Notes under the pieces: model-generated
The model's database searches: none
What the model was told of the DNA's origin: nothing
What the model saw: the letters and a program-made list of their open reading frames with translations, nothing else
Shown here: one piece after another, positions 8,292 to 59,533 of the stretch
Numbering within the stretch: the first letter of the stretch is position 1
Layout: each line of letters begins with the position of its first letter
Program-made: the position numbers and the translations under genes
NCBI GenBank assembly: GCA_951406725.2
Contig: OX597821.1
Coordinates: forward strand, 61,380,001-61,444,000
DNA length: 64,000 nt
Source of the DNA: Octopus vulgaris
Taxonomy: Eukaryota
Direction: 5' to 3'

Positions 8292-8347
8292 CGTTTAAAT
8301 ATTTGTTGAGCAAGATTTTTTATGTGAAGTCGTGTGTTGAAACAGAT

Positions 8348-8680
8348 ATTGTTATATTTCGGAATGGTCATATTACCAGTTTAGCCCATAAAAACACACG
8401 CACTATATATTTGGTGTTATTTTGCTTCAGTGTTATTTATTTTTTACATTAATCTTAATCTTATTTCGGACAGAGTTCTTTCGTCACACTCCTGTGACCG
8501 CATCAGTGGTCCTTTGTTTTCTTCTTTCTTATTTGTGTCTCTCCTTACGAACCGTCAGCCATTTTGTATTTCTATTGTATGTCTTCATTTGCGCATGCGT
8601 ATATCTCTATGTGCGTCTAGTTTATTTAGTGTGTGTATGTGGGGAGATGCCTGTAATATTTGTATCTTCTGTTTATATAC
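8348..8680 (-). repeat. Inverted pseudo-LTR of PLE-1 (5' copy)
   Basis: Near-identical reverse complement of 12047-12370; ORFs 8422-8709(+) and 12037-12306(-) give the same peptide. Confidence 0.95.
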
Positions 8681-12046: not shown

Positions 12047-12362
12047 GTATATAAACAGAAGATACAAATATTACAGGCATCCCCCCACATACACACACTA
12101 AATAAACATAGACGCACATAGAGATATACGCATGCGTAAATGAAGACATACAATAGAAATACAAAATGGCTGACGGTTCGTAAGGAGAGACACAAATAAG
12201 AAAGCAGAAAACAAAGGACCACTGATGCGGTCACAGGAGTGTGACGAAAGAACTCTGGCCGAAATAAGATTAAGATTAATGTAAAAAATAAATAACACTG
12301 AAGCAAAATAACACCAAATATATAGTGCGTGTGTTTTTATTGGCTAAACCATTCCGAAATAT

Positions 12363-12370
<8 letters not shown>
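12047..12370 (+). repeat. 3' pseudo-LTR of PLE-1
   Basis: Inverted copy of 8348-8680 that ends in (TA)n. Confidence 0.93.
12216..12260 (+). ncRNA. Variant minimal hammerhead-like motif in the PLE-1 pLTR (mirror copy 8468-8512, minus strand)
   Basis: GGACCA-CTGATGCG-GTCAC AGGAGT GTGAC-GAAA-GAAC-TC-TGGCC. The core deviates from CUGANGA after G8. Confidence 0.55.
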
Positions 12371-12419
<49 letters not shown>

Positions 12420-12420
<1 letters not shown>

Positions 12421-13299
12421 GAGGGGTACCCAAAAGAAACCGAAATTTTAAAATATTATTTCATTCACTTAGCTTTACGTGTTTCCTCTTTTATTGACTT
12501 TAAATTATTCGCCATTTAAACAATGCATCGGTCAAGACGAGCTTTCAAATTTTGGAAGCAGTGATGGAACTCTTGCTAAGTGATGCCTTTTAACGCGTCC
12601 GTCGTTTTTTTTTACTAATCTCTTCCACATCTACAAATTCCGTAGCACCATCTTTCGTCACCAATGATGACATTCGAAAAAAGGTCCGTATCGACTTCCA
12701 ACAGTTCTTTCAGTTCACGATATGCATTTAATCATGACTGCTTTTGATCTTCCGTGAGCAAAAGAGGTATAAATTTTGTTGCAACTTTTTTCATTCGCAA
12801 TTCCTCGCTCAAAATTCGTCAGTCATACCAACAATTTCGTCATTTGTTCGGTGACGGTCCTCCAAGATCAGTTTAGGAATTTTCATGATGTTTTCATTCG
12901 TTCAGGGGATCAACGGTCGCCTTCAAGGAGCGTTGATCCTCAAGTGGTCAAGTGACCGTTTCTAAAGCGTGAAAAAAACCAAAAAAACAATCGTAATGTT
13001 TTGCTCATAGTAGCGTCCTTGTAAGCTGTTTGGAGCCTGACCACTGTTTCAACGCGCGTTCACCCAAGCAGAAAACTGAATTTCACGGAAACACGTTGTT
13101 CCTACATTTCAGCCATCGCTGAATCGACGAACAAGGGCACAAAGCACAGAGGCATCACGTGGCAGTATGACCCCATTGGGCAATGACTGTCAGCAGAATG
13201 ACGCCTATGTGTCGCATCAAATTGTTTCGAGCGGCTGAAGCCTGAACTACAACGGGCTTGTCCCACAGATAACTTTTCAGTTTCTTTTGGGTAACCCCT

Positions 13300-13301
<2 letters not shown>
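12420..13301 (-). mobile_element. Internally deleted mariner-type DNA transposon
   Basis: TIRs CGAGGGGT(T)ACCCAAAAGAAAC(C/T)GAAA at 12420-12445 and 13275-13301, within (TA)n. The minus strand encodes a decayed mariner N-terminus, MAEM*EQRVSVKFSFLLG*TRVETVVRLQTAYKDATMSKT. Confidence 0.85.
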
Positions 13302-13358
<57 letters not shown>

Positions 13359-13360
13359 TT

Positions 13361-13491
13361 ATTTATTTTATAGAAGGAGCTTCTACAGGACTAGAACTGT
13401 TTCATTCAAATGAAATCATCAGGAAGCTTCTGATGATTTCATTTGAATGAAACAGTTCTAGTCCTGTAGAAGCTCCTTCTATAAAATAAAT
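13361..13491. repeat. ~130-bp near-perfect palindrome built from two divergent hammerhead motifs
   Basis: The arms are reverse complements around a central AG|CT (13426/13427) except for one extra G. Confidence 0.92.
13378..13428 (-). ncRNA. Type I hammerhead ribozyme
   Basis: AGCTTC-CTGATGA-TTTC ATTT GAAT-GAAA-CAG TTCTAGTC CTG-TA-GAAGCT: 6-bp stem I, full core, stem III and GUA cleavage triplet. Confidence 0.8.
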
Positions 13492-13556
13492 TAATTTACT
13501 CTGCTATGTATTGAGTACCTTATTTACTGTGGTTAACCCCGACTCAACCCGGGAGC

Positions 13557-25239: not shown

Positions 25240-25278
<39 letters not shown>

Positions 25279-25283
<5 letters not shown>

Positions 25284-26121
25284 TTGAGTTGTGGGGTATC
25301 GCACGAGTGGGATTATATAAGAAAAAAGGTTTGAAAATGCAATTTAAACGATGTTTATTTACTTAACCGGTTTCACTCTTTGGTAAAAGATTGTCAAAAG
25401 TTACATTTAAGGAAACATTGAATAATATGGGTTCAAAAAAGTTTTTTACATAATTGTCACATTGGATATTATGAATTCAAAAATGTTTTTTTATACATAA
25501 TTGTCACATTACATGTATAAATATAGTGTTGGGTAACAGAGAAGTTCAATAGTGTGATGAGAATATTTGGGAAAATTTGGCAGAAAAGGATACAACAAAT
25601 ATATTATTGGGAATTGGTTACGTTAATTATTGGTTGTCGCAAATTGTCACATTACATGTATATATATACAATCTTTGGTATATATATACAGCGTTTTGAC
25701 AGCAAAAATTAAAATGGATTTTTTGTACATCTCAGAATATTTTAAGTATGTTTTTACTGACCTGTCAGTATTAGCAGAAAGGCTGAACTGAGAGAACAGA
25801 AGAAGTAGCCAATGTGGTGTATACTTCCCCTTTATGCATGAATGATTTTGGGGTTATCATGAGGTTAGTATGCGGGTGTGAATAGATGTGTCCGTGCCTG
25901 CTGGTCAGATAGCGTCTGTTTGTCACACACATATATATACACACAAACACACACACACACAACAACACACACACACACATAGTATACAAACACACACCAC
26001 ATACAAACAACACACACACACAGAACACACACACCCACACACAACGCACCCACATATATCACATATACACACAGCACACAAATATAACATGTATCTATAT
26101 ATAACATACACAGATATATAA

Positions 26122-26181
<60 letters not shown>

Positions 26182-26677
26182 TACATACATAATATAAATA
26201 TCACACAAATACACCTAGCATATATATACACACATACAATACACACATACAGCATGTAAGTAATATACATACACAACATATGCATGCAATATACATACGC
26301 AATACATACATATAATATATATATATATAGACAATGCATATACATATATACACATATACATATAAATAGTGTTTACATACACATACATAGATGTACCACA
26401 TATACACACAACACACATACATACAATGCATACACATACACGTACGCATACATATAATATATATATACACACACACACACACATAACATACATACACACA
26501 CAATGCATACATATATATACACGCAATGCATATACATGTATTCATGCATATATAGCACACCTACAATATACATATATACAGTGCACACATACACACAAAT
26601 ATATACACTTAATTGTACACGTACATATACAATACACATACATACAATATACATATACACAATGCGCATGCAAATAA
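25279..26677 (-). repeat. 3' pseudo-LTR of PLE-2 (~1.4 kb)
   Basis: Nearly identical to 31037-32436. Confidence 0.95.
25361..25401 (-). ncRNA. Minimal hammerhead, U3-A8 variant (3' pLTR copy)
   Basis: ACTT-TTGACAA-TCTTT TACC AAAGA GT-GAAA-CCGG-TT-AAGT. Confidence 0.7.
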
Positions 26678-26979
26678 TGTACATCTTTATACACACATAA
26701 ACATGCAAATAAATATACACACACACACATACACACACACACATATATATACACACATATATATATATATATATACACACATACATACATACATACATGC
26801 ACATACATATATTTTTTCACACACATGCACACACATATATATATATAAAAAATTCACCACCCCCCACACACACAAATTACAAACCTATAGCGTACACACT
26901 CAAATATATCTCTACATGCCGCACACACACACAAACAAAGTACTAACATATACACACATACCATGCATATACACACACA

Positions 26980-27012
<33 letters not shown>

Positions 27013-27390
27013 AAAACAGATAAATATGTAAATACATACACACGTACACAATGCTCACACACACACACACACACATACACACACACCCGCACACAGTGCA
27101 CACGCACACACACATATATACACACGTGCACACACACACACACACACAACGCGTGCACACACACATATACACACACACGCACACAGTGCACACACACACA
27201 CACAACACTCACACACATACATCACCTACATATATATAATGCATACGTGTGCATGCCACGTATGTGTGCGGTCAATGCCCGCTAGTGTGTCCTATGCGTG
27301 CCGATGCGCGCATGTGCCCGCCCGCACGATATGCTGTGAGCGTGCGCGCGTCCCTGTGTGCTTGCTCTGGATGTGCTTCCAGGGGGTATG

Positions 27391-29667
27391 TTAGAGTATG
27401 TTTAGTTGTGGTCTGTATTTTTGAATAAGATTACTTTCCTTATTTATTCGTGTTTGGTCTGTGGTGTTGTCCGAGCATTGGTATAGTGGGAAGACTAAGA
27501 ACTTGGGGGACTTATTGTGTGCACAAAGGTCTAAGTGTCCACTTAGTGGTATCTGTCTTGTGGAGGGGTCCCTCAGTTGTTGTCGGTGAACTGTCATTCT
27601 GTCTCTGAGGGTAAGGCTCGTTTGCCCTATGTAGTCTTCGTGGCAACCTTCACACCTTATGACGTAGAGTAAATTTTTTGATGCGCACGTGAAGTTATTT
27701 TTTATGATGAATGTGTGTCCCGAGTGGAACTTGTACGACGATCCCTCAATGAGGTGGATGCAGGTCTTACAGTTGGGGCGACCACATTTTTTGATGGTGG
27801 GCGGTGGGTTTGTGTTGTGTAATTTTGCGTTGGTGAGGAGGTTTTTTAGGGATTTAGGTTGTCTCTTACTTTTTATTATTTTATGAGCTGCCAGTATTTT
27901 TTTCAGGCGTGGGTCTTGATTTAGTTGTGGAATGTTGTTGTATATAATAGTGTAAGCTTCTGCATTCCTTGGGTTGTGTGTTGAGAGATAAGGGAGGCTA
28001 TTGACTGTACTGTGGATGTGTTTGGGTTTTCGAAGGTCTTGAATGTTGATTGATTTGGCCCGTTCTATTCCGTTGTCTACTAGTGATGCCGGGTAATGTC
28101 TTTCGAGAAGAATTGCCCTTAGTTCCCGGAGTCTTCTATTTCGTGTTGTGTCATTTGAGACAATAGTGCAGATTCTTCTCGCTAGGTTGAAGGGGATATT
28201 TGTCTTTGTGTGTTTTGGGTGATTGGAGGTGAATAGAAGGTATTGTTTAGAGTCAGTGGGTTTGTAATGGATGTCAGTTTCAATGTTGACGCCTTTTTTA
28301 ATGATTAGGATGTCAAGAAAAGGGAGTTGGTCCTGACTATATTCCATTGTGAATTGAATGTTGTTATTTACACTGTTGATAAGGTTTTTGAAGTCTATAA
28401 GTTGGTCGAGTGTGTGGGACCATAGGATGAGGCAATCATCTAAGTAGCGTTTCCAGTTCTCCAACAGGTATTTGTGGAAAGACTGGCCGTACTTATATTT
28501 GGATTTTTCATAGATATGTGATTCCAGGTAGGCCATCACCAGGTTTGCATAGGTAGGTGCAACTTTCGTACCCATTGCAGTTCCTGAGACCTGTCTGTAA
28601 GTGTTGTTGTGGAAATACATGAAGTTGTTTTGCAGAATAAATTTGAGGCCCTCAATTATGAATTCTTTTTTAATTCTTTCCGGGATCTCATTGGGATATT
28701 TATCCAGCCAGAATTTAATGGCTTCCAGTCCAAATTCATGTGGGATTGTGGTGTAAAGATTAATAACATCAAAAGAAACGATTAAGGTGTCTTTATCGGC
28801 ATGTTTGGGGAGATGGTTTAATAGGTCCAGGTCATCTCTTACAATACTTGGAATGTGTTTCAGTATTGGCTTTAAGATGATATCTATAAAGTTGCTAAGT
28901 CTGTGTGTTTCACAACTGGGGCCTGCCACTATTGGTCTCAGTTTGAGATCAGTGGGATGTGGTATAGTGATGTAGGTTGAAGTGGACTTTTTGCAAGCTT
29001 CTGTGATAATTTGACTCTTGTGTATTTTTGGAAGCCCATAGAGTGTGCTGGTTTTGCAATTAAATTTAGTAATGTAGTCGCATTCCTTTGCTGTCAAGTC
29101 ATTCCGGTGTTGGTAAATGAGTGCCTTCAGATTGGTCATTGTTTTGGATTGCTGGTAGTCGACTACTCTTTCGTAGTATGTGGTATCCTCTAAAAGGAGA
29201 GATACAGAGTTTTTATATTGCTCAGTATTCATAACAACGACCGTACTACCCTTATCAGCTTCCTTTATTGTGACGTCATGATTGTCTCGTAGCGTATGGA
29301 TGATTTCCCATTCTCTTTTACTGGTGTTGGGTTTGAGTTTAGGTTGTGGGAGTTCACCATAAGGGAAGTTGGAGATGTAATCGCAAAATTTGTCTAAGGT
29401 TTTGTTTTTGCCTTTTATGGGATTATAGTTGCTTTTGTTACAGACCATTGATTCGTCGTTATTATTAGTTTTTCTGTCAAAAAATTCCTCTGTGAGGCGT
29501 AATTTTCTGCAAAAGTGCGAGATGTCATCCTGTATTTCCCTCAGGTTAGGGTATTGCGGAGTTGGGGTGAATTTTAGTCCTCTTGAAAGGATTTTTATTT
29601 GTGGTGTCGACAGGTTTAGGTTAGAAAGATTCACTATTTTTGGTTTTTCGGGGTTGGTATCTACCAT
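27391..29667 (-). CDS. PLE-2 ORF2: reverse transcriptase + Cys linker + GIY-YIG endonuclease (758 aa)
   Basis: LSRGLKFTP, IKEADKG, YGLPKIHK, LRPIV, SFDVINLYTTIP, QVSGTAMGTKVAPTYANL, WKRYLDD, LPFLDI, YKPTD, CGRPNCKTC, LLYVIRCEGCHEDYIGQT, RINKE...QLN. No stops. Confidence 0.96.
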   Translation of the reverse strand: MVDTNPEKPKIVNLSNLNLSTPQIKILSRGLKFTPTPQYPNLREIQDDISHFCRKLRLTEEFFDRKTNNNDESMVCNKSNYNPIKGKNKTLDKFCDYISNFPYGELPQPKLKPNTSKREWEIIHTLRDNHDVTIKEADKGSTVVVMNTEQYKNSVSLLLEDTTYYERVVDYQQSKTMTNLKALIYQHRNDLTAKECDYITKFNCKTSTLYGLPKIHKSQIITEACKKSTSTYITIPHPTDLKLRPIVAGPSCETHRLSNFIDIILKPILKHIPSIVRDDLDLLNHLPKHADKDTLIVSFDVINLYTTIPHEFGLEAIKFWLDKYPNEIPERIKKEFIIEGLKFILQNNFMYFHNNTYRQVSGTAMGTKVAPTYANLVMAYLESHIYEKSKYKYGQSFHKYLLENWKRYLDDCLILWSHTLDQLIDFKNLINSVNNNIQFTMEYSQDQLPFLDILIIKKGVNIETDIHYKPTDSKQYLLFTSNHPKHTKTNIPFNLARRICTIVSNDTTRNRRLRELRAILLERHYPASLVDNGIERAKSINIQDLRKPKHIHSTVNSLPYLSTHNPRNAEAYTIIYNNIPQLNQDPRLKKILAAHKIIKSKRQPKSLKNLLTNAKLHNTNPPPTIKKCGRPNCKTCIHLIEGSSYKFHSGHTFIIKNNFTCASKNLLYVIRCEGCHEDYIGQTSLTLRDRMTVHRQQLRDPSTRQIPLSGHLDLCAHNKSPKFLVFPLYQCSDNTTDQTRINKESNLIQKYRPQLNIL

Positions 29668-31001
29668 CTGGTGTCGTGGAAACTGATGCCCTTGCCTAAA
29701 GGAATCCTGGGGGTTCTTCTATTTGCGGTATTTTGCTGTATGTGATTCTGTCCCCCGTTGACATGTCTGTTGAAGAGGTTTTGGTTGTTGTGATTCTGTC
29801 CCCCGTTGCTATGTTGTCTGTTGAGGAGGTTTTGGTTGTTCCAGGGTCTGGGTTGTTGGTGTGGCCTCCTGGAAGAGTTTTGGTTATTCCAGGGTTTGGG
29901 TTGTTTGTCCTGGGTGTAATGTTGGTTCCTTAGAGTGGGTTGGAAACTATATTCATGGTTTAGAAGTGAATTCCTATATGTTGGGGGAGAACTCTGAGTT
30001 AGGAGCGGTTTTGGTTGGAATCTACAATCATAGTTCAGAGATGGGTTTCTAAGTGATGGGTAGGATCTCCGAATCTGGAACAGTTCTTGTGTGGGTTGGG
30101 GTCTACGTTGTCTGGTAAAGTTTTGTCGTGTGATGATGGGTGTCTCGGTTCTTTTGATGGGATTGTAGTGCTGTCTGTAAGTTCTGTTGTTGTTGTTGTC
30201 GATGTTAGGGGTGGTGTGTGTTCGGTGTTTTGTGGTTGGTTTTCTTTGTTTTTGGCGAGGGGTGTGAGTTGAAGTAGATATTTTAAAATATGGGTTGCTT
30301 GAAAGGTGTTCCTTTGTGAACTCTGTTTCATAATTGGTGAACCAGCTGTTTTTTTCCATTCGTTGGAGGGATGTTATTTCTTCATCCTCGCAGTTTTTTC
30401 TCCAGAGTTTGGTGGTTTCATCAAGGAGTGCTCCTTCACAGTGTTTTGAGATTTCAATCTGCATTTCATTGTCAAGGGTCTTGGATTTTTCTTCACTGGT
30501 GTTGGCTCTGAGCCGCAAGAGTTCTACTTCCGTTTTGAATTTTTCAAAAGCTAGTTTCTCCCTGAGGTTTTTTTGGTTTTCTGGTTCATTTTGGATGGGT
30601 TTTATTTGTAGTTTTCTGGGTAGGATGATAGGGGTGGAGTTGAGCCACTTTTCATAAATGTCAGCTTTGTTGTTATTTTTTATGAAATTCCAGAAGGCAA
30701 ACTTACGCGCTTTGAGATTTTTACTCCAGGTGTTGTTAAGAGAGCTTTTAATTGAGAAGCAGTCTTTAGTTTGCTCCTGCTTTGGGAGCACTGCCGTCTC
30801 TATGGATTTCATTAGGTTTTGCAGTGTTGGGATGATGTCAGGGATTTGATTGGTTGTTTTGGACTCCATGAGTCCATTTAGGTATAAGTGCGATTGTTCG
30901 ACTTTGTTTATTATGGTTGAAAGTTTCGAGGAGATTTCTTGTAATTCTTTTAGGATATTTTGGTTCATTAAAGATTCTGCTTGTTGTGATTTGGGTGGCA
31001 T
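29661..31001 (-). CDS. PLE-2 ORF1 (446 aa): predicted coiled-coil N-half and Q/N/R/P-rich repetitive C-half
   Basis: A long open ORF starts ~35 nt after the upstream pLTR and overlaps ORF2 by 7 nt (ATGGTAG). Confidence 0.8.
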   Translation of the reverse strand: MPPKSQQAESLMNQNILKELQEISSKLSTIINKVEQSHLYLNGLMESKTTNQIPDIIPTLQNLMKSIETAVLPKQEQTKDCFSIKSSLNNTWSKNLKARKFAFWNFIKNNNKADIYEKWLNSTPIILPRKLQIKPIQNEPENQKNLREKLAFEKFKTEVELLRLRANTSEEKSKTLDNEMQIEISKHCEGALLDETTKLWRKNCEDEEITSLQRMEKNSWFTNYETEFTKEHLSSNPYFKISTSTHTPRQKQRKPTTKHRTHTTPNIDNNNNRTYRQHYNPIKRTETPIITRQNFTRQRRPQPTQELFQIRRSYPSLRNPSLNYDCRFQPKPLLTQSSPPTYRNSLLNHEYSFQPTLRNQHYTQDKQPKPWNNQNSSRRPHQQPRPWNNQNLLNRQHSNGGQNHNNQNLFNRHVNGGQNHIQQNTANRRTPRIPLGKGISFHDTRW

Positions 31002-31036
31002 TTTCGGGACTCGTGTGATGTTTATATATATATATA

Positions 31037-31883
31037 AAAAAGTTGAGTTGTGGGGTATCGCACGAGTGGGATTATATAAGAAAAAAGGTTTGAAAATGCA
31101 ATTTAAACGATGTTTATTTACTTAACCGGTTTCACTCTTTGGTAAAAGATTGTCAAAAGTTACATTTAAGGAAACATTGAATAATATGGGTTCAAAAAAA
31201 GTTTTTTACATAATTGTCACATTGGATATTATGAATTCAAAAATGTTTTTTTATACATAATTGTCACATTACATGTATAAATATAGTGTTGGGTAACAGA
31301 GAAGTTCAATAGTGTGATGAGAATATTTGGGAAAATTTGGCAGAAAAGGATACAACAAATATATTATTGGGAATTGGTTACGTTAATTATTGGTTGTCGC
31401 AAATTGTCACATTACATGTATATATATACAATCTTTGGTATATATATACAGCGTTTTGACAGCAAAAATTAAAATGGATTTTTTGTACATCTCAGAATAT
31501 TTTAAGTATGTTTTTACTGACCTGTCAGTATTAGCAGAAAGGCTGAACTGAGAGAACAGAAGAAGTAGCCAATGTGGTGTATACTTCCCCTTTATGCATG
31601 AATGATTTTGGGGTTATCAGGAGGTTAGTATGCGGGTGTGAATAGATGTGTCCGTGCCTGCTGGTCAGATAGCGTCTGTTTGTCACACACATATATATAC
31701 ACACAAACACACACACACACAACAACACACACACACACATAGTATACAAACACACACCACATACAAACAACACACACACACACAGAACACACACACCCAC
31801 ACACAACGCACCCACATATATCACATATACACACAGCACACAAATATAACATGTATCTATATATAACATACACAGATATATAA

Positions 31884-31932
<49 letters not shown>

Positions 31933-32436
31933 CACACGCACACATACATACATAATATAAATATCACACAAATACACCTAGCATATATATACACACATAC
32001 AATACACACATACAGCATGTAAGTAATATACATACACAATATATGCATGCAATATACATACGCAATACATACATATAATATATATATATATAGACAATGC
32101 ATATACATATATACACATATACATATAAATAGTGTTTACATACACATACATAGATGTACCACATATACACACAACACACATACATACAATGCATACACAT
32201 ACACGTACGCATACATATAATATATATATACACACACACACATAACATACATACACACACAATGCATACATATATATACACGCAATGCATATACATGTAT
32301 TCATGCATATATAGCACACCTACAATATACATATATACAGTGCACACATACACACAAATATATACACTTAATTGTACACGTACATATACAATACACATAC
32401 ATACAATATACATATACACAATGCGCATGCAAATAA
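31037..32436 (-). repeat. 5' pseudo-LTR of PLE-2
   Basis: Direct repeat of 25279-26677; contains a hammerhead copy at 31120-31160. Confidence 0.95.
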
Positions 32437-33148
32437 CTGTGTGTGTGTGTGTGTTGTTTGTATGTGGTGTGTGTTTGTATACTATGTGTGTGTGTGTGTG
32501 TTGTTGTTGTGTGTGTGTGTATTTGTGTGTATATATATGTGTGTGACAAACAGACGCTATCTGACCAGCAGGCACGGACACATCTATTCACACCCGCATA
32601 CTAACCTCCTGATAACCCCAAAATCATTCATGCATAAAGGGGAAGTATACACCACATTGGCTACTTCTTCTGTTCTCTCAGTTCAGCCTTTCTGCTAATA
32701 CTGACAGGTCAGTAAAAACATACTTAAAATATTCTGAGATGTACAAAAAATCCATTTTAATTTTTGCTGTCAAAACGCTGTATATATATATACCAAAGAT
32801 TGTATATATATACATGTAATGTGACAATTTGCGACAACCAATAATTAACGTAACCAATTCCCAATAATATATTTGTTGTATCCTTTTCTGCCAAATTTTC
32901 CCAAATATTCTCATCACACTATTGAACTTCTCTGTTACCCAACACTATATTTATACATGTAATGTGACAATTATGTATAAAAAAACATTTTTGAATTCAT
33001 AATATCCAATGTGACAATTATGTAAAAAACTTTTTTTGAACCCATATTATTCAATGTTTCCTTAAATGTAACTTTTGACAATCTTTTACCAAAGAGTGAA
33101 ACCGGTTAAGTAAATAAACATCGTTTAAATTGCATTTTCAAACCTTTT

Positions 33149-33152
<4 letters not shown>
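32437..33152 (+). repeat. Inverted partial pLTR of PLE-2
   Basis: Reverse complement of ~31079-31785; contains a hammerhead copy at 33071-33111. Confidence 0.95.
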
Positions 33153-33203
<51 letters not shown>

Positions 33204-36921: not shown

Positions 36922-36970
36922 TTTACCACTGAGGAGGCCTAAACAGGACGAAATCAATTGATCTGGCAAA
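36922..36970 (+). ncRNA. Type I hammerhead ribozyme
   Basis: TTTACCA-CTGAGGA-GGCCT AAAC AGGAC-GAAA-TCAATTGA-TC-TGGCAAA. Confidence 0.8.
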
Positions 36971-42002: not shown

Positions 42003-42037
<35 letters not shown>

Positions 42038-42199
42038 GTAAAATAAGAAAAATCAACGAAAATGCATATTGTAGATATAAAAAGGCTATTTATGACAGGT
42101 AGTGACAAATATATACATTTAGAGTATTACTAATCAAAAAGGTCATTATCATTGATGATTATAAGAAGTTAATAATAATAATAATAAGTTAAGATACTG

Positions 42200-42272
42200 A
42201 ATCGAACCAATTGGTTTTCGCGTTAGCTATTCATCGTTTGAACAACACCGGTTAGTAAACGCTGTCAGGTCT
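42200..42272 (-). ncRNA. Degenerate hammerhead in the PLE-3 3' region
   Basis: GAC-CTGACA-GCGTT...AACGC-GAAA-ACCAATTGGT-TC. G8 is missing and stem I is weak. Confidence 0.5.
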
Positions 42273-42412
42273 AATAGTTCCTGAGAAAAGAGATTATTTG
42301 TAAGGGAGGTAAGTAGTTCTGGATTATATGTATAAGGGAGGTAATTAGTTCAGGAATTAGAAATGTGAGTGATGTAGAAAGTATATAGGGTTTAGTGGTT
42401 TAAATTGAAGAG

Positions 42413-44544
42413 TTAGTGGTGTACTGTATTGAGTTGTGTGTTAACATTTAGTTGGGGGAGAAATTTGTTGATGAAAAATGACTCTTTATTCAACCTTTGT
42501 TGCATTGTGGTGTTCTGTGAGCATTGGTAAAAGAGAAATATTTGGAAATTGGGATTAAGATTCCTGGCACATCTTTCTATGTGTTCACTCACCTTTAACT
42601 GTCTGTATTGTGAGTGACGGATTTGCTCTTTGTGAATGGTGATTCTTTGACGGAGTGAAAGTCCTGTTTGTCCAATATAGAGTTTACCGCATCCTATGCA
42701 TGTCATGACATAGATTACATTTGCCGAGGCGCAGGTGAAATTTGATTTGATCTTAAATATTTCTCCTTGTTTGAATTGGAATTCTGAACCCTCCAGAAGG
42801 TGGGGACATGTTCCACAGTTGGAACGTCACATTTTGTCACTTTTGGCTCAGTAGTTAGTGGGTAAAGTCTAGCGCTGGTTTTAGTATTCTTTTCAGTGAC
42901 TTCGGTTGCTTTTTGCTTTTTACAATTTTATATGAGCTTAAAATTTCGTTCATTGTTTTGTCTACTGTGAGGATAGGGAGGTTTTGGGTGATGATTTTGA
43001 AGGCTTCGTTATTTCTGGGGTTATGTGTGGAGATGTACGGGAGTATTTTTAAGTCTTGTTTAGTATTACGGCTAGTTTTCATTAATTGTTGTATATCTAT
43101 CCCCTTAGCTCTTTTGATGCCTTCATTTACTAATGAGATTGGGTAGTGTCTTTTAGTTAGTGTAGATCTAAGTTCAAGGAGTCTTTGTTCACGAGTGTAT
43201 GTATCGGAAACTATGGTGCAGATTCTTTTTGCTAGGTTAATGGGAGTGTTGATTTTTATGTGTTTGGGGTGGCAGGAGTTAAATAATAGGTATTGTTTAG
43301 AGTCTGGGGGTTTATAAAATATGTCTGTTTCTATGTGGTTGTTAACTATTCTAATTAAGATGTCTAGAAAAGGTAGTTGCTTACTGTTGTGTTCCATAGT
43401 GAATTGTATATTGCTGTGTATGTTGTTGAGCATTCTTTTAAAATCAAGGAGTTGATCCATGCTATCTTGCCAAAATATGAAGCAATCATCTAAATATCTC
43501 TTCCAGTTTTCCTTTAAGTAGTAATTGAAAGAGGCGCCATATTTTTCTAGTGATGATTGGTATAACTTAAGTTCGTGGTAACCCATTACGAGGTTTGCAA
43601 TAACTGGAGCAGCTCTGGTTCCCATTGCAATTCCGCATTCCTGTCGATAGTAATTAGTATCGAACAAGAAATGATTGTTCAATAGGACGAATTTCAGTAC
43701 TTCAATTATAAAATTGTGGTTAATTCGTCCTGGGAAAAATGTGATTGCTTCTATACCATAGTCGTGTGGGATATTAATGTATAGATTCACTACATCGAAA
43801 GAGACCAGTAGAGTTCCGTCCTTTACTGTCTTCGGGAGGTGGTTCAGCATGTCTAGGTCATCCCTGATATAGCTTTTCACATACATATTTTAAAAGAGGT
43901 TTGAGTAATATGTCAAGAAAGTTACTCAAACGGTGGGTTTCGCAGGAAGGGCCAGCTATGATGGGTCTGAGTTTGAGGTCAGTAGGTGGAGGGACATTAA
44001 TGCATAGGCTTGTAGAGACTTTGCAGGCTTCACAAATGAGTAGATTTTTATGTATCTTGGGTAATCCGTAGAATAGACTGGGACTGTATTTGAAATTGGA
44101 TAGATAGTCAATTTCATGTGTTGTAAGACCCTTTCCGTGAGTTTGGAGTAGGGAGGATAATTTTTTTAGTTTCTTCTGTGGGTTGTAATATGTTAGTTTT
44201 TCATAGTAAGTATTATTTTCCAACATGGAAAGTATAAAATCTTTGTAGTACTCTGTATCCATCAATACTACCGCACTTCCTTTGTCGGCTTCTTTAATAG
44301 TGAGGTTTATGTCATTTTTTAGCTCGACAAGGTCTTTCCATTCGTTTAAATCAAGGTTGGATTTGATAAGTTGTTTTGGAATGATATTGTAAGGAAAACA
44401 AGTTATGTGATCACAGAAAACATCAAGTGCTTTATTTCTACCTTTTGTAGGAAGGTACTCACTTTTGTTTTTCACTATTGAGTGATCCTCACTGGTATAG
44501 TTGTAAAGAGCTTCTGTTAGGCGTAATTTACGGCAGAAGTCCAA
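42413..44544 (-). pseudogene. PLE-3 RT / GIY-YIG pseudogene
   Basis: Frameshifts near 43870 and 42860 split the RT and endonuclease. Confidence 0.92.
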
Positions 44545-44590
44545 AGTAGTGTCCTTAATTTCATTTGGGTTATATATATATATATATGTG

Positions 44591-45159
44591 CTTAATCATA
44601 TCGAAGGGAAATGAAAATTAATTGAAATTTTCACATCCAATGGCTTAGCGTGTAAAACATTAGTCCAAAGACTATGTATTACTCATAAAATACAGTGTAC
44701 ATTTAAACACATAAGGAATCCATTCGTGGGATTCAACACTCTAGAAAGAAAAGCTATGTTCTATAACAACAAAATTAGGGATAAAATCCCAACAAGAACG
44801 AAATGAAAAAATGAAAACTTTTACCATCTATTATCCTGGACCAATTGGTTTCTGATTTTAGTTCAGTAAATAAATTATATTCGCTAGGTGAAATCTTCGT
44901 CAACAGGTACACGTTAGATTAATTATATAAAACACGAGGCAATCAACTATGTGCCTCTTGTTTATACATCCTAATATTTTCAAAATCTACTGCGCAGACG
45001 CAGTCCCTCATCGGCAATAAAAAAAAGCCAACTTTTAAGATTCGAAAAATTATCGAAAAAGTTACAATACTTAATCACATCGAAGGGAAATGGAAATTAA
45101 TTACACGCTAGGCAACTGGAAGTGAAAATTTCTATTAATTTCCATTTCCCTCCGTTGTG
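44591..45159 (-). mobile_element. ORF-less hammerhead mini-element (~479-nt unit, partial tandem plus inverted end)
   Basis: 44591-44622 is repeated directly at 45070-45102, and 44597-44654 is repeated inverted at 45102-45159. A hammerhead lies inside. Confidence 0.7.
44835..44907 (-). ncRNA. Type I hammerhead with long stem II
   Basis: CCTG-TTGACGA-AGATTT...AAATCA-GAAA-CCAATTGG-TC-CAGG. Confidence 0.72.
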
Positions 45160-45954: not shown

Positions 45955-46298
45955 TGATTCTATGGCTCAGTGGTTAGAGCATCGAGCTTACGATCGTGAG
46001 CTTGTGAGCTCGAATCCCAGACCGGGCTGCGTGTTGTGTTCTTGAGCAAGGCACTTTATTTCACGTTGCTCCAGTTCACTCAGCTGTAGAAATGAGTTGC
46101 GACGTCACAGGTGCCAAGCTGTATCGGCCCCTTTGCCTTTCCCTTGGATAACATCGGTGACGTGGAGAGGGGAGGCCGGTATGCATGGGCGACTGCTGGT
46201 CTTTCATAAAACAACCTTGCCCAGACTTGTGCCTCAGAGGGTAACTTTCTAGGTGCAATCCCATGGTCATTCATGACCGAAGGGGGTCTTTACCCTTA
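45955..46298 (+). mobile_element. tRNA-derived SINE (family A, tail type 2), full length
   Basis: A box TGGCTCAGTGG, B-box-like GAGCTCGAATCC, and the shared central block GTTGTGTTCTTGAGCAAGGCACTTTATTTCACG. Confidence 0.85.
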
Positions 46299-46453: not shown

Positions 46454-46690
46454 TGAGCAAGCCACTTTATTTCACGTAACTCTAGTCCACTCAGCTGGCA
46501 AAAATGAGTAGTGCCTGTATTCCAAAGGGCCAGCCTTGCCACACACTGTGTGACGCTCAATCTTCCCGAGAACTAAGTTAAGTTGACACGTGTTTGTGGA
46601 GTGCTCAGCCACTTACAGCACAATTTCACGAGCAAGCTGTTCCGTTGATCGTATCAGCTGGGAACCTCGTCGTCGCAACCGACAGAATGC

Positions 46691-52974: not shown

Positions 52975-53210
52975 TAAATGCGCCCTTTTAAAGCCTAGTC
53001 AGGCTCATGGGCCCGGTTTCCCGGTTTCTATGACGTATGTGTACCTCAGCTGGCCGGGACGCTAGTCCATCGTAGCATTACTCATTTTTACCAGCTGCGT
53101 GGACTGGAGCAACGTGAAATGAAGTGTTTTGCTCATGAACACAACTCGTCGCCCAGTCCAGGAATCGAAACTACAATCTTACGATCATGGGGCTGACACT
53201 CTAACCACTG
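52975..53210 (-). mobile_element. tRNA-derived SINE (family A, tail type 3)
   Basis: The minus strand has CAGTGGTTAGAG...GTTTCGATTCC and the same central block as 45955, but a different 3' tail. Confidence 0.78.
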
Positions 53211-53292
53211 ATCGGCCCAAGGCTACAGTAGAAAACACTTGCTCATGCGCTTGGGAAGCAAGCTTCTTCCCATGCAGCCACGCCTGCGCCTG
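53209..53292 (-). mobile_element. Fragment of a family B SINE head
   Basis: The reverse complement contains GCAAGTGTTTTCTACTGTAGCCTTGGGCCGA, as at 49860-49895. Confidence 0.55.
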
Positions 53293-58545: not shown

Positions 58546-58752
58546 AAGACACACACATACGTGTGTATACATATACATAAACATACATACATAATAATCA
58601 TACACGTATACACACGCACACTCATACACACACATGCAGCCACAGTCACACAGGAATGTATGTTTACATGTGCATTTGAGTGTGTGTATACCCGTTAGTT
58701 TGACTGTGTGTGTTCCTCTTCACATCACGACGTTTATATATATATATATATA

Positions 58753-59464
58753 TATGCATAAATATGAGAGAGCGACCACTATGTGGTCTACTCTAGTGCT
58801 AAAAATAGATCCACTATGGATCCCCTAGAGTAGATCACATAGTGGTCACTCTCTCATATTTATGTATAAATTTGTATTGTATCCCTGGTTTTTATGTGCT
58901 AAGCCACTTGATGTTAAATTGATGGTATTATTAAATTAATATCAAATTTTTCACCCTCATTTATAAATCTAATTATACTGCAGAAAATATTTTATGCGGT
59001 ATTCGTTTCCAGTAGTGTTATCATGCTTTTGGCGGGGGAATTTGAATCATAGCTACTAATGCAATTGATCGAACCGCACGTGTATTTTGGTGCTGCGTCG
59101 AAATATAACGAGCGATTTAATAAATTGTATTTAAGACAAACTCCTGCTGATGATTTATGGATGTTGTGTAAGTAAAATTGCATTTACTTTAATAATGAAA
59201 CAATTATTCAGGCTTAATCTATTTTTTTCGTTATTTTTCACTTGCCCCACGTTAAATGTTATGTTATTTCTACTTGGAAACAATTTATTTAGTGGCTATT
59301 CCATAGTGGATCTATTTTTAGCACTAGAGTAGACCACATAGTGGTCGCTCTCTCATATTTATGTATAAATTTGTACTGTATCCCTGGTTTTTATGTGCTA
59401 AGCCACTTGGTGTTAAATTGATGGTATTATTAAATTAATATCAAATTTTTCACCCTCATTTATA

Positions 59465-59465
<1 letters not shown>
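58753..59465 (+). mobile_element. ORF-less hammerhead mini-element (~499-nt unit, partial tandem plus inverted 5' end), in (TA)n
   Basis: 58825-58966 repeats directly at 59324-59465, and 58753-58820 is the inverted copy of 59300-59366. Confidence 0.8.
59143..59212 (+). ncRNA. Type I hammerhead with long stem II
   Basis: CCTG-CTGATGA-TTTAT...AAGTAAA ATTGCA TTTACTT...ATAAT-GAAA-CAATTA-TT-CAGG. Confidence 0.72.

Positions 59466-59533
<68 letters not shown>

Follow-up and report, generated by a model that had tools for sequence, protein, structure and literature searches.

Positions 44591-45159 of the window, as the whole analysed stretch of 64,000 nucleotides of Octopus vulgaris DNA is called here, hold an old, decayed insertion of a non-coding 478-nt repeat, hereafter family A (Table 1). 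Read along the minus strand, this insertion runs from an inverted arm (unit positions ~474 to 415) through the final 33 nt of a unit and one full unit into a (TA)n microsatellite, followed by a 5'-truncated PLE with RT and GIY-YIG; the microsatellite is thus placed between the 3' end of the element and the start of the neighbouring piece, PLE-3. The direct arm measures 512 nt, and the copy diverges by 6% from the family consensus. Its architecture comprises a direct repeat (44591-44623 / 45070-45102; 33 nt, 94% identity, spacing 479) and an inverted one (44597-44655 / 45101-45159; 59 nt, 85% complementary), whose ungapped scores, 27 and 33 respectively, are far above the maxima of 13 and 18 reached in 30 shuffles. 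Both repeats had been described in a first-pass annotation of the same DNA, together with an internal hammerhead having a CCTG/CAGG stem I and a palindrome, and with a (TA)n common to the element and the 5' end of PLE-3, and all of these features were recovered, the hammerhead being on the minus strand. Neither a scan of the window with Rfam nor one restricted to the element produced a hammerhead match at this element, and the miRNA matches obtained there reflect its inverted repeat. The window copy shows no sign of a host function.

Table 1. Features of the family A insertion and of the related elements in the window
Feature	Position	Strand	Remarks
PLE-3, neighbour outside the element	42035..44570	-	5'-truncated, frameshifted; RT + GIY-YIG; own 3' repeat
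(TA)n target microsatellite	44570..44590	.	common to the element and the adjoining PLE
Full family A unit	44591..45069	-	479 nt here (consensus 478 nt); matches the consensus at 448/478 positions
S2, second fixed 3' end (unit end)	44591..44595	-	used by the direct arm of the window copy
3' structured domain	44634..44776	-	common to the superfamily, decayed here; P1 44770-44766 / 44644-44640, P2 44744-44737 / 44652-44645, hairpins enclosed
S1, first fixed 3' end of family A	44684..44690	-	unit ~380-385, inside the P2-closed loop; unused by the window copy
Type I hammerhead motif	44835..44907	-	predicted cut between 44839 and 44838
Hammerhead, stem I	44907-44904 / 44838-44835	-	
Hammerhead, core UUGACGA	44903-44897	-	U3.G8; extra nucleotide 44896
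Hammerhead, stem II	44895-44891 / 44858-44854	-	extra A 44853; GAAA 44852-44849; palindromic helix III
Hairpin GAGGCA / UGCCUC	44931..44962	-	upstream of the hammerhead; present too in sister families D and F
Last 33 nt of the preceding unit	45070..45102	-	unit positions 447-479; 5'-truncated start of the direct arm; creates the direct repeat
Inverted arm	45102..45159	+	unit ~415-474; joined 5'-to-5' to the direct arm; no (TA)n after its outer end
Family B element (58753 element)	58744-59476	+ hammerhead, about 59143-59214	499-nt spacing

Copies and insertion ends of family A

A search of the species' own 2.8-Gb genome with the unit gave 2,025 first-look candidates, and the best 40 of them, once scored, included 39 other loci that are 84-91% identical to the window unit. 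A 24-nt hammerhead word has 254 exact genomic matches (and none in the control), an exact-word count that is a lower bound, the family therefore numbering at least 254 copies. The consensus built from 30 copies is 478 nt long with 34% GC, joins up with itself head-to-tail and has no continuation into a coding PLE; when doubled, it contains no ATG-started frame longer than 44 aa, and against PLE proteins its best E value is only 0.049. A short head-to-tail unit of a few hundred bases, with less than 50% GC, no protein coding (longest ATG frame 44 aa) and no LTR-type layout, is what characterizes a non-LTR retrozyme. According to the first-pass annotation, its view of the element would fall if the consensus extended into a coding PLE or if the repeats were a one-off local rearrangement; neither is the case. 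Such a rearrangement, joined by a chance hammerhead, would agree with the missing Rfam match and with the poor folding of the window copy, whose hammerhead is no better than shuffles (z -0.27) and which has lost its 3' fold (z -0.48), but it is refuted by the hundreds of copies spread over the genome that agree in unit, ends and motif, and we give it practically no weight. Family-like contigs are also present in four assembled contig sets (two of them guessed to be RNA), contigs being blind to expression, strand and circles. One family A fragment occurs in six identical copies on contigs C17 and C60 (L323-L327, L334), probably through a segmental duplication.

The ends were read in 56 distinct family A insertions (60 loci minus four second views of one place). 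The direct arm ends at S2, the unit end, in 33 of them, to which two scored at position 7 are added, at S1 (unit positions about 380-396) in 15, and at other positions in six; S1 and S2 are about 95 nt apart, and (TA)n follows 46 of the 48 3' ends classed as one or the other. The 5' ends, for their part, are scattered over the entire unit, arms longer than one unit being found in 25 of the 56 insertions, with a maximum of 774 nt, and the copies read through both the unit junction and the hammerhead. No arm contains two complete hammerheads in these 56 insertions, a sample of at least 254. Fixed 3' ends and ragged 5' ends have the polarity of reverse transcription. An inverted arm, differing in length and position between copies, is present in 24 insertions and absent from 32. 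In 10 of the 24 two-armed copies an S1 arm is paired with an S2 arm (eight by script classes, two with S2 at position 7), and the outer end of the remaining ones is mostly internal, without (TA)n. The window copy is the sole S2/S2 case among the 24, and since its outer end lacks (TA)n as well, its inversion may be of the internal kind; its second arm looks as if initiated internally, in the manner of twin priming, close to where the direct arm starts. No target-site duplications could be read at the insertions.

Fixed 3' ends, an optional tail, 5' truncation, an inverted 5' copy and a microsatellite target are the features expected of a PLE-mobilised sequence, and no fixed terminal inverted repeats, as a MITE or another DNA transposon would have, exist across the copies. 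Nonetheless, terminal inverted arms and TA targets are MITE-like, and the arrays of sister family D (see below) could be taken for a satellite, so that a repeat spread at the DNA level, the inverted repeat being its terminal inverted repeat, has to be weighed. We regard it as very improbable, given that the inverted arms are variable and missing from 32 of the 56 insertions, that the 3' ends are fixed and the 5' ends ragged, and that there is covariation at the RNA level.

Neighbouring and other coding PLEs

The element is on the same strand as the PLE-3 ORF piece, directly upstream of it and with a common (TA)n, and CCAATTGG is found in the motifs of both. This raises the question of whether the stretch is the 5' pseudo-LTR, or a 3' fragment, of PLE-3 or of some other coding PLE. 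For PLE-3 the answer is negative: none of the 29 other copies of its 5' piece has family A upstream, and most of them extend instead into a further, more N-terminal ORF, two reaching PLE-3's own repeat and ATG; besides, the family A unit has no similarity to the PLE-3 3' UTR (z -1.1). In the 56 insertions the unit never runs into an ORF nor flanks an RT-GIY-YIG ORF in register, as it would in an autonomous PLE. Upstream of the unit there is, in every case, its own end, a piece in inverted orientation or a flank unrelated to it, and the PLE fragments found in eight flanks are separate, non-contiguous pieces, so that an origin from any coding PLE seems improbable to us. PLE-3 merely adjoins the element, the two having inserted independently into a common (TA)n. 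Because PLE-3 is nearer to its consensus (506/521) than the mini-element to its own (448/478), a later insertion of PLE-3 into the same microsatellite would fit, the order not being proven.

The hunt for a coding partner covered 60 PLE loci, which come from a few genome families (6,136 GIY-YIG candidates, 150 scored). Comparison with them by BLAST, nhmmer and covariance models revealed no shared sequence or structure, nor did a covariance model of the 3' fold described below match the UTRs of the autonomous PLEs among them. The searches with the PLE-3 3' and 5' regions, the flanks of motif hits and two distant families likewise yielded no coding element with the fold. Two loci, L192 and L182, were considered as coding partners and rejected, as their upstream PLE fragments are separated from the unit by unrelated sequence. 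A young autonomous PLE family (L097, L102 and others) has many intact 781-aa frames and a U3-A8 minimal hammerhead, with one locus whose 3' end is about 100 nt past the usual one; it is a candidate helper of the young retrozyme families, with no shared sequence found.

Several other observations were made on these PLEs. In PLE-3 (L121-L150), about 50 nt separate two fixed 3' ends, and the core of the hammerhead-like motif is degenerate in nearly all copies (CUGACAC for CUGANGA). A second PLE, whose ORF pieces are at 29547-27397 on the minus strand, occupies 25240-33203 of the window; its CA-rich 3' region is duplicated at 99% (25264-26677 / 31023-32436) and has an inverted copy too, and a U3-A8 hammerhead-like core is found near 25400. 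Families A, B and E, as well as three autonomous PLE families, have a small CCAC..GTG hairpin located 30-45 nt upstream of a 3' end (in the window at 44729-44711 and 25311-25296, both on the minus strand, and in the tails of L124 and L102); as seen by eye, it is possibly a shared signal.

Hammerhead core, sister families and a predicted common 3' RNA fold

On the minus strand, the hammerhead (44907-44835) reads CCUG / UUGACGA / A / stem II GAUUU..AAAUC / A / GAAA / CCAAUUGG / UC / CAGG. The motif could be parsed in 45 places across the 56 insertions (13 loci remaining unparsed), and the 3-8 pair is U.G in 28 of them, U-A in nine, C-G in seven and C.A in one. Most of the family, 37 of 45 parsed hammerheads, has U3, which is not the damage that the first-pass annotation had assumed when proposing to assay a consensus with "C3 restored". 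The extra A between stem II and G12 is invariant in family A and, in 30 aligned copies, so are U4, A9, G12 and A13, while position 7 takes all four bases. The stem covariation that the same annotation had looked for was non-significant for the hammerhead within family A, its score being reached by 17 of 500 shuffles. A tree of 47 copies, whose backbone is unresolved, places eight of the nine C3 copies together (93/92) and has several origins of U3-A8; three copies show a C3.A8 mismatch. As regards a possible compensatory selection at the 3-8 pair, A8 is found both with U3 (8/38) and with C3 (3/9), though U3-A8 alone is common to whole clades. In sister family G, U3 and both extra nucleotides (the one following A9 and the A preceding GAAA) are retained, stem II differs from that of family A by a compensatory pair, and helix III has a palindrome of its own (the descriptor counts for the variants of family G require pairing and are hence circular, serving only as a variant listing). 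The natural series C3-G8, U3.G8 and U3-A8 within one family is a ready test of the tolerance of the hammerhead core.

Does the motif leave traces of cleavage in the genome? The word just downstream of the predicted cut has 54 matches, corresponding to 49 arms after six identical places were counted once, and five of these 49 start at unit positions 229-233, where the cut is predicted, against 1.6-1.8 expected (P 0.02-0.04); another 6-nt window holds four stops in the same set. The excess may be a weak hint of the predicted cleavage. All 56 arms read through the cut site, which follows from the choice of loci and has no statistical value. As most arms read past the cut site, the usual template would be circular or uncleaved, the case for a circle being about evenly balanced.

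Family B, represented in the window by the element at 58744-59476, has 1,988 genomic candidates and the same two ends, about 105 nt apart, with one arm at each end in 13 of 29 distinct loci (read by eye); in the window copy the direct arm stops at the second site and the inverted arm at the first, both in (TA)n. Profile searches of the flanks added the tandem hammerhead families D (488 nt) and E (about 505 nt). In global alignments against dinucleotide shuffles, z was 10.9 for A-D, 7.4 for A-E, 10.7 for B-E, 4.4 for D-E and 3.0 for A-B, the reverse-complement controls giving at most 1.7. The alignments indicate that A and B are homologous via the intermediate families. Accordingly, of the claim that the two window elements have no overall similarity, what holds is that BLAST finds none; the direct link is weak (z 3.0) and the links through intermediates are strong, and with these, and a covarying 3' fold in common, the epithet "unrelated" had to be abandoned. 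Family D is young, its copies being 97-99% identical, ends at positions 385 and 488 in the same two-end pattern, and forms arrays of up to about 14 near-identical units. Two or more consecutive units with complete hammerheads, the arrangement that Li et al. count as 'active', are found in family D and in none of the 56 family A insertions. An array of about ten family D units is inserted in (TA)n beside a family A copy (L010:1-1258, G000:C5:74571437-74576315), and the family D hammerhead has a long stem II and a C3-G8 core. Families G and H, more distant tandems, are non-coding too. A pattern for the helix ends matches the genome 6,638 times and, when reversed as a control, 18 times; the size of the superfamily rests on this one pattern, which fixes only the helix ends, although among the first 30 matches 26 have at least four extra pairs beyond it, and many are repeats of families D and E. 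The suspicion of a recurring element class and no accident was therefore well founded: families A and B are both dispersed, D is their sister, and the pattern adds its 6,638 matches.

Downstream of the hammerhead, all the families can form, according to prediction, two stacked long-range helices, P1 and P2, that close a multi-hairpin loop. In an alignment of 24 sequences from four families, 93.9% of the cells are paired (19-42% in slid controls), two-sided changes affect five of the 13 pairs, and the covariation score was reached by none of 500 shuffles; nevertheless, since the sequences are related and the structure was derived from them, this amounts to some five independent events instead of 32. 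In five families, single copies adopt the fold with z from -2.4 to -4.4, and a covariance model of it matches both window elements. S1 is located inside the P2 loop, and S2 about 50 nt past the fold, behind one further hairpin. A copy that ends at S1 retains only the 5' arm of the helix, so that, if the fold matters for copying, the template ran past the end of the insertion, that is, initiation was internal. The 3' fold is likely to be the handle by which a Penelope-type enzyme would copy the element.

Proposed mobilisation and relation to known retrozymes

We consider it quite probable that the element is a non-autonomous PLE passenger of the non-LTR retrozyme kind, copied into (TA)n repeats by a PLE through its reverse transcriptase and GIY-YIG endonuclease. 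What is seen is a dispersed, self-closing, ORF-less family whose direct arms begin at varying positions, stop at two fixed 3' ends joined to (TA)n and may be accompanied by an inverted arm, and this reading is preferred because these insertion scars match both the PLE hallmarks (PMC8557442) and the in vitro chemistry of PAc (PMC11167929). The former, as described in the accessible text of PMC8557442, are partial tandems, inverted 5' copies, a one-sided tail and microsatellite targets; regarding the latter, a purified PLE protein was shown to nick both strands of AT-rich DNA and to initiate reverse transcription from two internal positions, with extension of both strands in vitro (PMC11167929). 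In the proposed mechanism, a source array would be transcribed into multimeric RNA, which the hammerhead may cut to monomers, probably as a dimer via the palindromic helix III, and the monomer would be circularised by a host ligase. A PLE protein would then bind the P1/P2 3' fold and nick AT-rich DNA, and target-primed reverse transcription would begin inside the RNA, at S1 or S2, continue across the unit junction, the template being a circle or an uncleaved multimer, and stop at random (after 512 nt in the window copy). The inverted arm would come from a second priming off the other target strand, after which the two cDNA 5' ends would be joined. Some points speak against the passenger reading: no partner PLE was found in the 60 loci and the unit is unlike the PLE-3 UTR; the sample contains no two-hammerhead family A arm (the longest being of 774 nt); the core is non-canonical, with U3.G8 in 28 of 45 motifs; in vitro PLE insertion needed no hammerhead cleavage (PMC11167929); and eight of nine Xenopus retrozyme dimers were uncleaved, according to the accessible part of a recent preprint (bioRxiv 10.64898/2026.07.22.740005).

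Some of these points would favour a scheme that overlaps with the former and differs from it only in the form of the RNA, in which the element is an ORF-less PLE derivative (pseudo-LTR) made from linear multimeric read-through transcripts, with a vestigial or protein-dependent hammerhead and no circular RNA. It is suggested by the U3.G8 core with its extra A before GAAA, by copies that routinely read through the cut site and by the dispensability of cleavage for in vitro insertion (PMC11167929), as well as, in the accessible texts, by the poor cleavage of PLE hammerheads (PMC4209133) and by the non-autonomous Chlamys elements with head-to-tail copies (PMC8557442). However, conservation of the core and the stems contrasts with a variable position 7, a comparison of families A and G reveals covariation in stem II and helix III, there is a weak excess of 5' ends at the cut site, and the near-identical family D arrays of ~14 units are easier to obtain from a circle. 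On balance, we see this linear scheme as possible, yet rather unlikely. An extended version of the passenger reading is also put forward, tentatively and as a proposal that would sooner be wrong than right: the P1/P2 fold, kept by covariation in at least seven families whose remaining sequence is ~65% identical, would be a recognition element by which one PLE RT, probably a dimer, captures the circular RNA of a retrozyme and initiates at two fixed positions within it, each serving one target strand; with no pLTR relative remaining in the genome, the superfamily would mimic its partner by shape, and the U3.G8 hammerhead with the extra A would still cleave in vivo.

The class to which the element would belong is a known one. 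Non-LTR retrozymes have been described as tandem type I hammerhead repeats, with circles in coral, mussel and axolotl, and PLEs have been proposed as their helpers (PMC7229834; Cervera and de la Pena 2020, in the accessible text); Li, Clavereau and Pollet (2026), in the accessible part of their preprint, treat retrozymes as non-autonomous PLE derivatives with units of 51-972 bp (bioRxiv 10.64898/2026.07.22.740005). Family A resembles the metazoan representatives, as far as these texts describe them, in its non-coding, low-GC tandem unit with one type I hammerhead and a short palindromic helix III, in its dispersed monomers, in the co-occurrence with PLEs and in the proposed mobilisation by them. 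Its unit of 478 nt exceeds the 170-400 nt given in the accessible text of PMC7229834 but is within the range of the 2026 survey. It departs from retrozymes in that none of the 56 insertions has a two-hammerhead arm, and in its U3.G8 core with the extra A before GAAA. The two fixed ends, the two-armed insertions and the cross-family 3' fold are absent from the published retrozyme descriptions in their accessible parts, and whereas 21 PLE matches are reported there for the Xenopus retrozyme families (10.64898/2026.07.22.740005), no homologous pLTR was found here.

Similar likenesses and differences emerge with the PLEs themselves. In common with EN+ PLEs, as they appear in the accessible text of PMC8557442, the element has a partial tandem with an inverted, 5'-truncated copy, a tail at one end and microsatellite or AT-rich targets; unlike them, it has no ORF, and its tail is of about 95-105 nt versus 30-40 bp. 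As in PAc, there are two internal start sites downstream of the hammerhead, although those of PAc have no target homology (PMC11167929) and the end sites of the element are AT-rich and blend into (TA)n. The Chlamys MRC1 elements are likewise ORF-less PLE dependants with pLTRs and head-to-tail insertions, but the algal MRC1 type resembles the 3' end of its autonomous partner (PMC8557442, accessible text) and no such partner was found here. U3-A8 cores and an extra nucleotide after A9 are already known in PLE hammerheads, and, compared with the minimal ones (U3-A8) of the accessible text of PMC4209133, family A has a majority of U3.G8 and an invariant extra A before G12; the accessible text of PMC3088659 does not mention C3U. 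No description of family A or of the P1/P2 fold was found in the literature, subscription papers, Repbase/Dfam entries and the supplements of PMC7229834 and the 2026 preprint aside. The additions to the known class are a fold that surrounds the start sites throughout the superfamily and a ribozyme core of variant sequence. How animal retrozymes re-enter genomes is an open question, the published support for PLE helpers, in its accessible part, being co-occurrence and pLTR similarity. The insertion scars fit PLE chemistry, and the covarying fold at the start sites offers a concrete cis-element for an in vitro PLE assay.

Finally, the window contains other hammerhead-like motifs, at 36923-36969 (+), 13428-13378 (-), 24848 (-) and 34472-34390 (-), the first of which is the only Rfam Hammerhead_1 match of the window (26.7 bits, below the gathering score), while the second is within an inverted structure (12047-13495) that matches 8346-8680 too. 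A SINE-like repeat is located at 45960-46260, with partial copies at about 1527-1636, 46454-46509 and 53075-53211.
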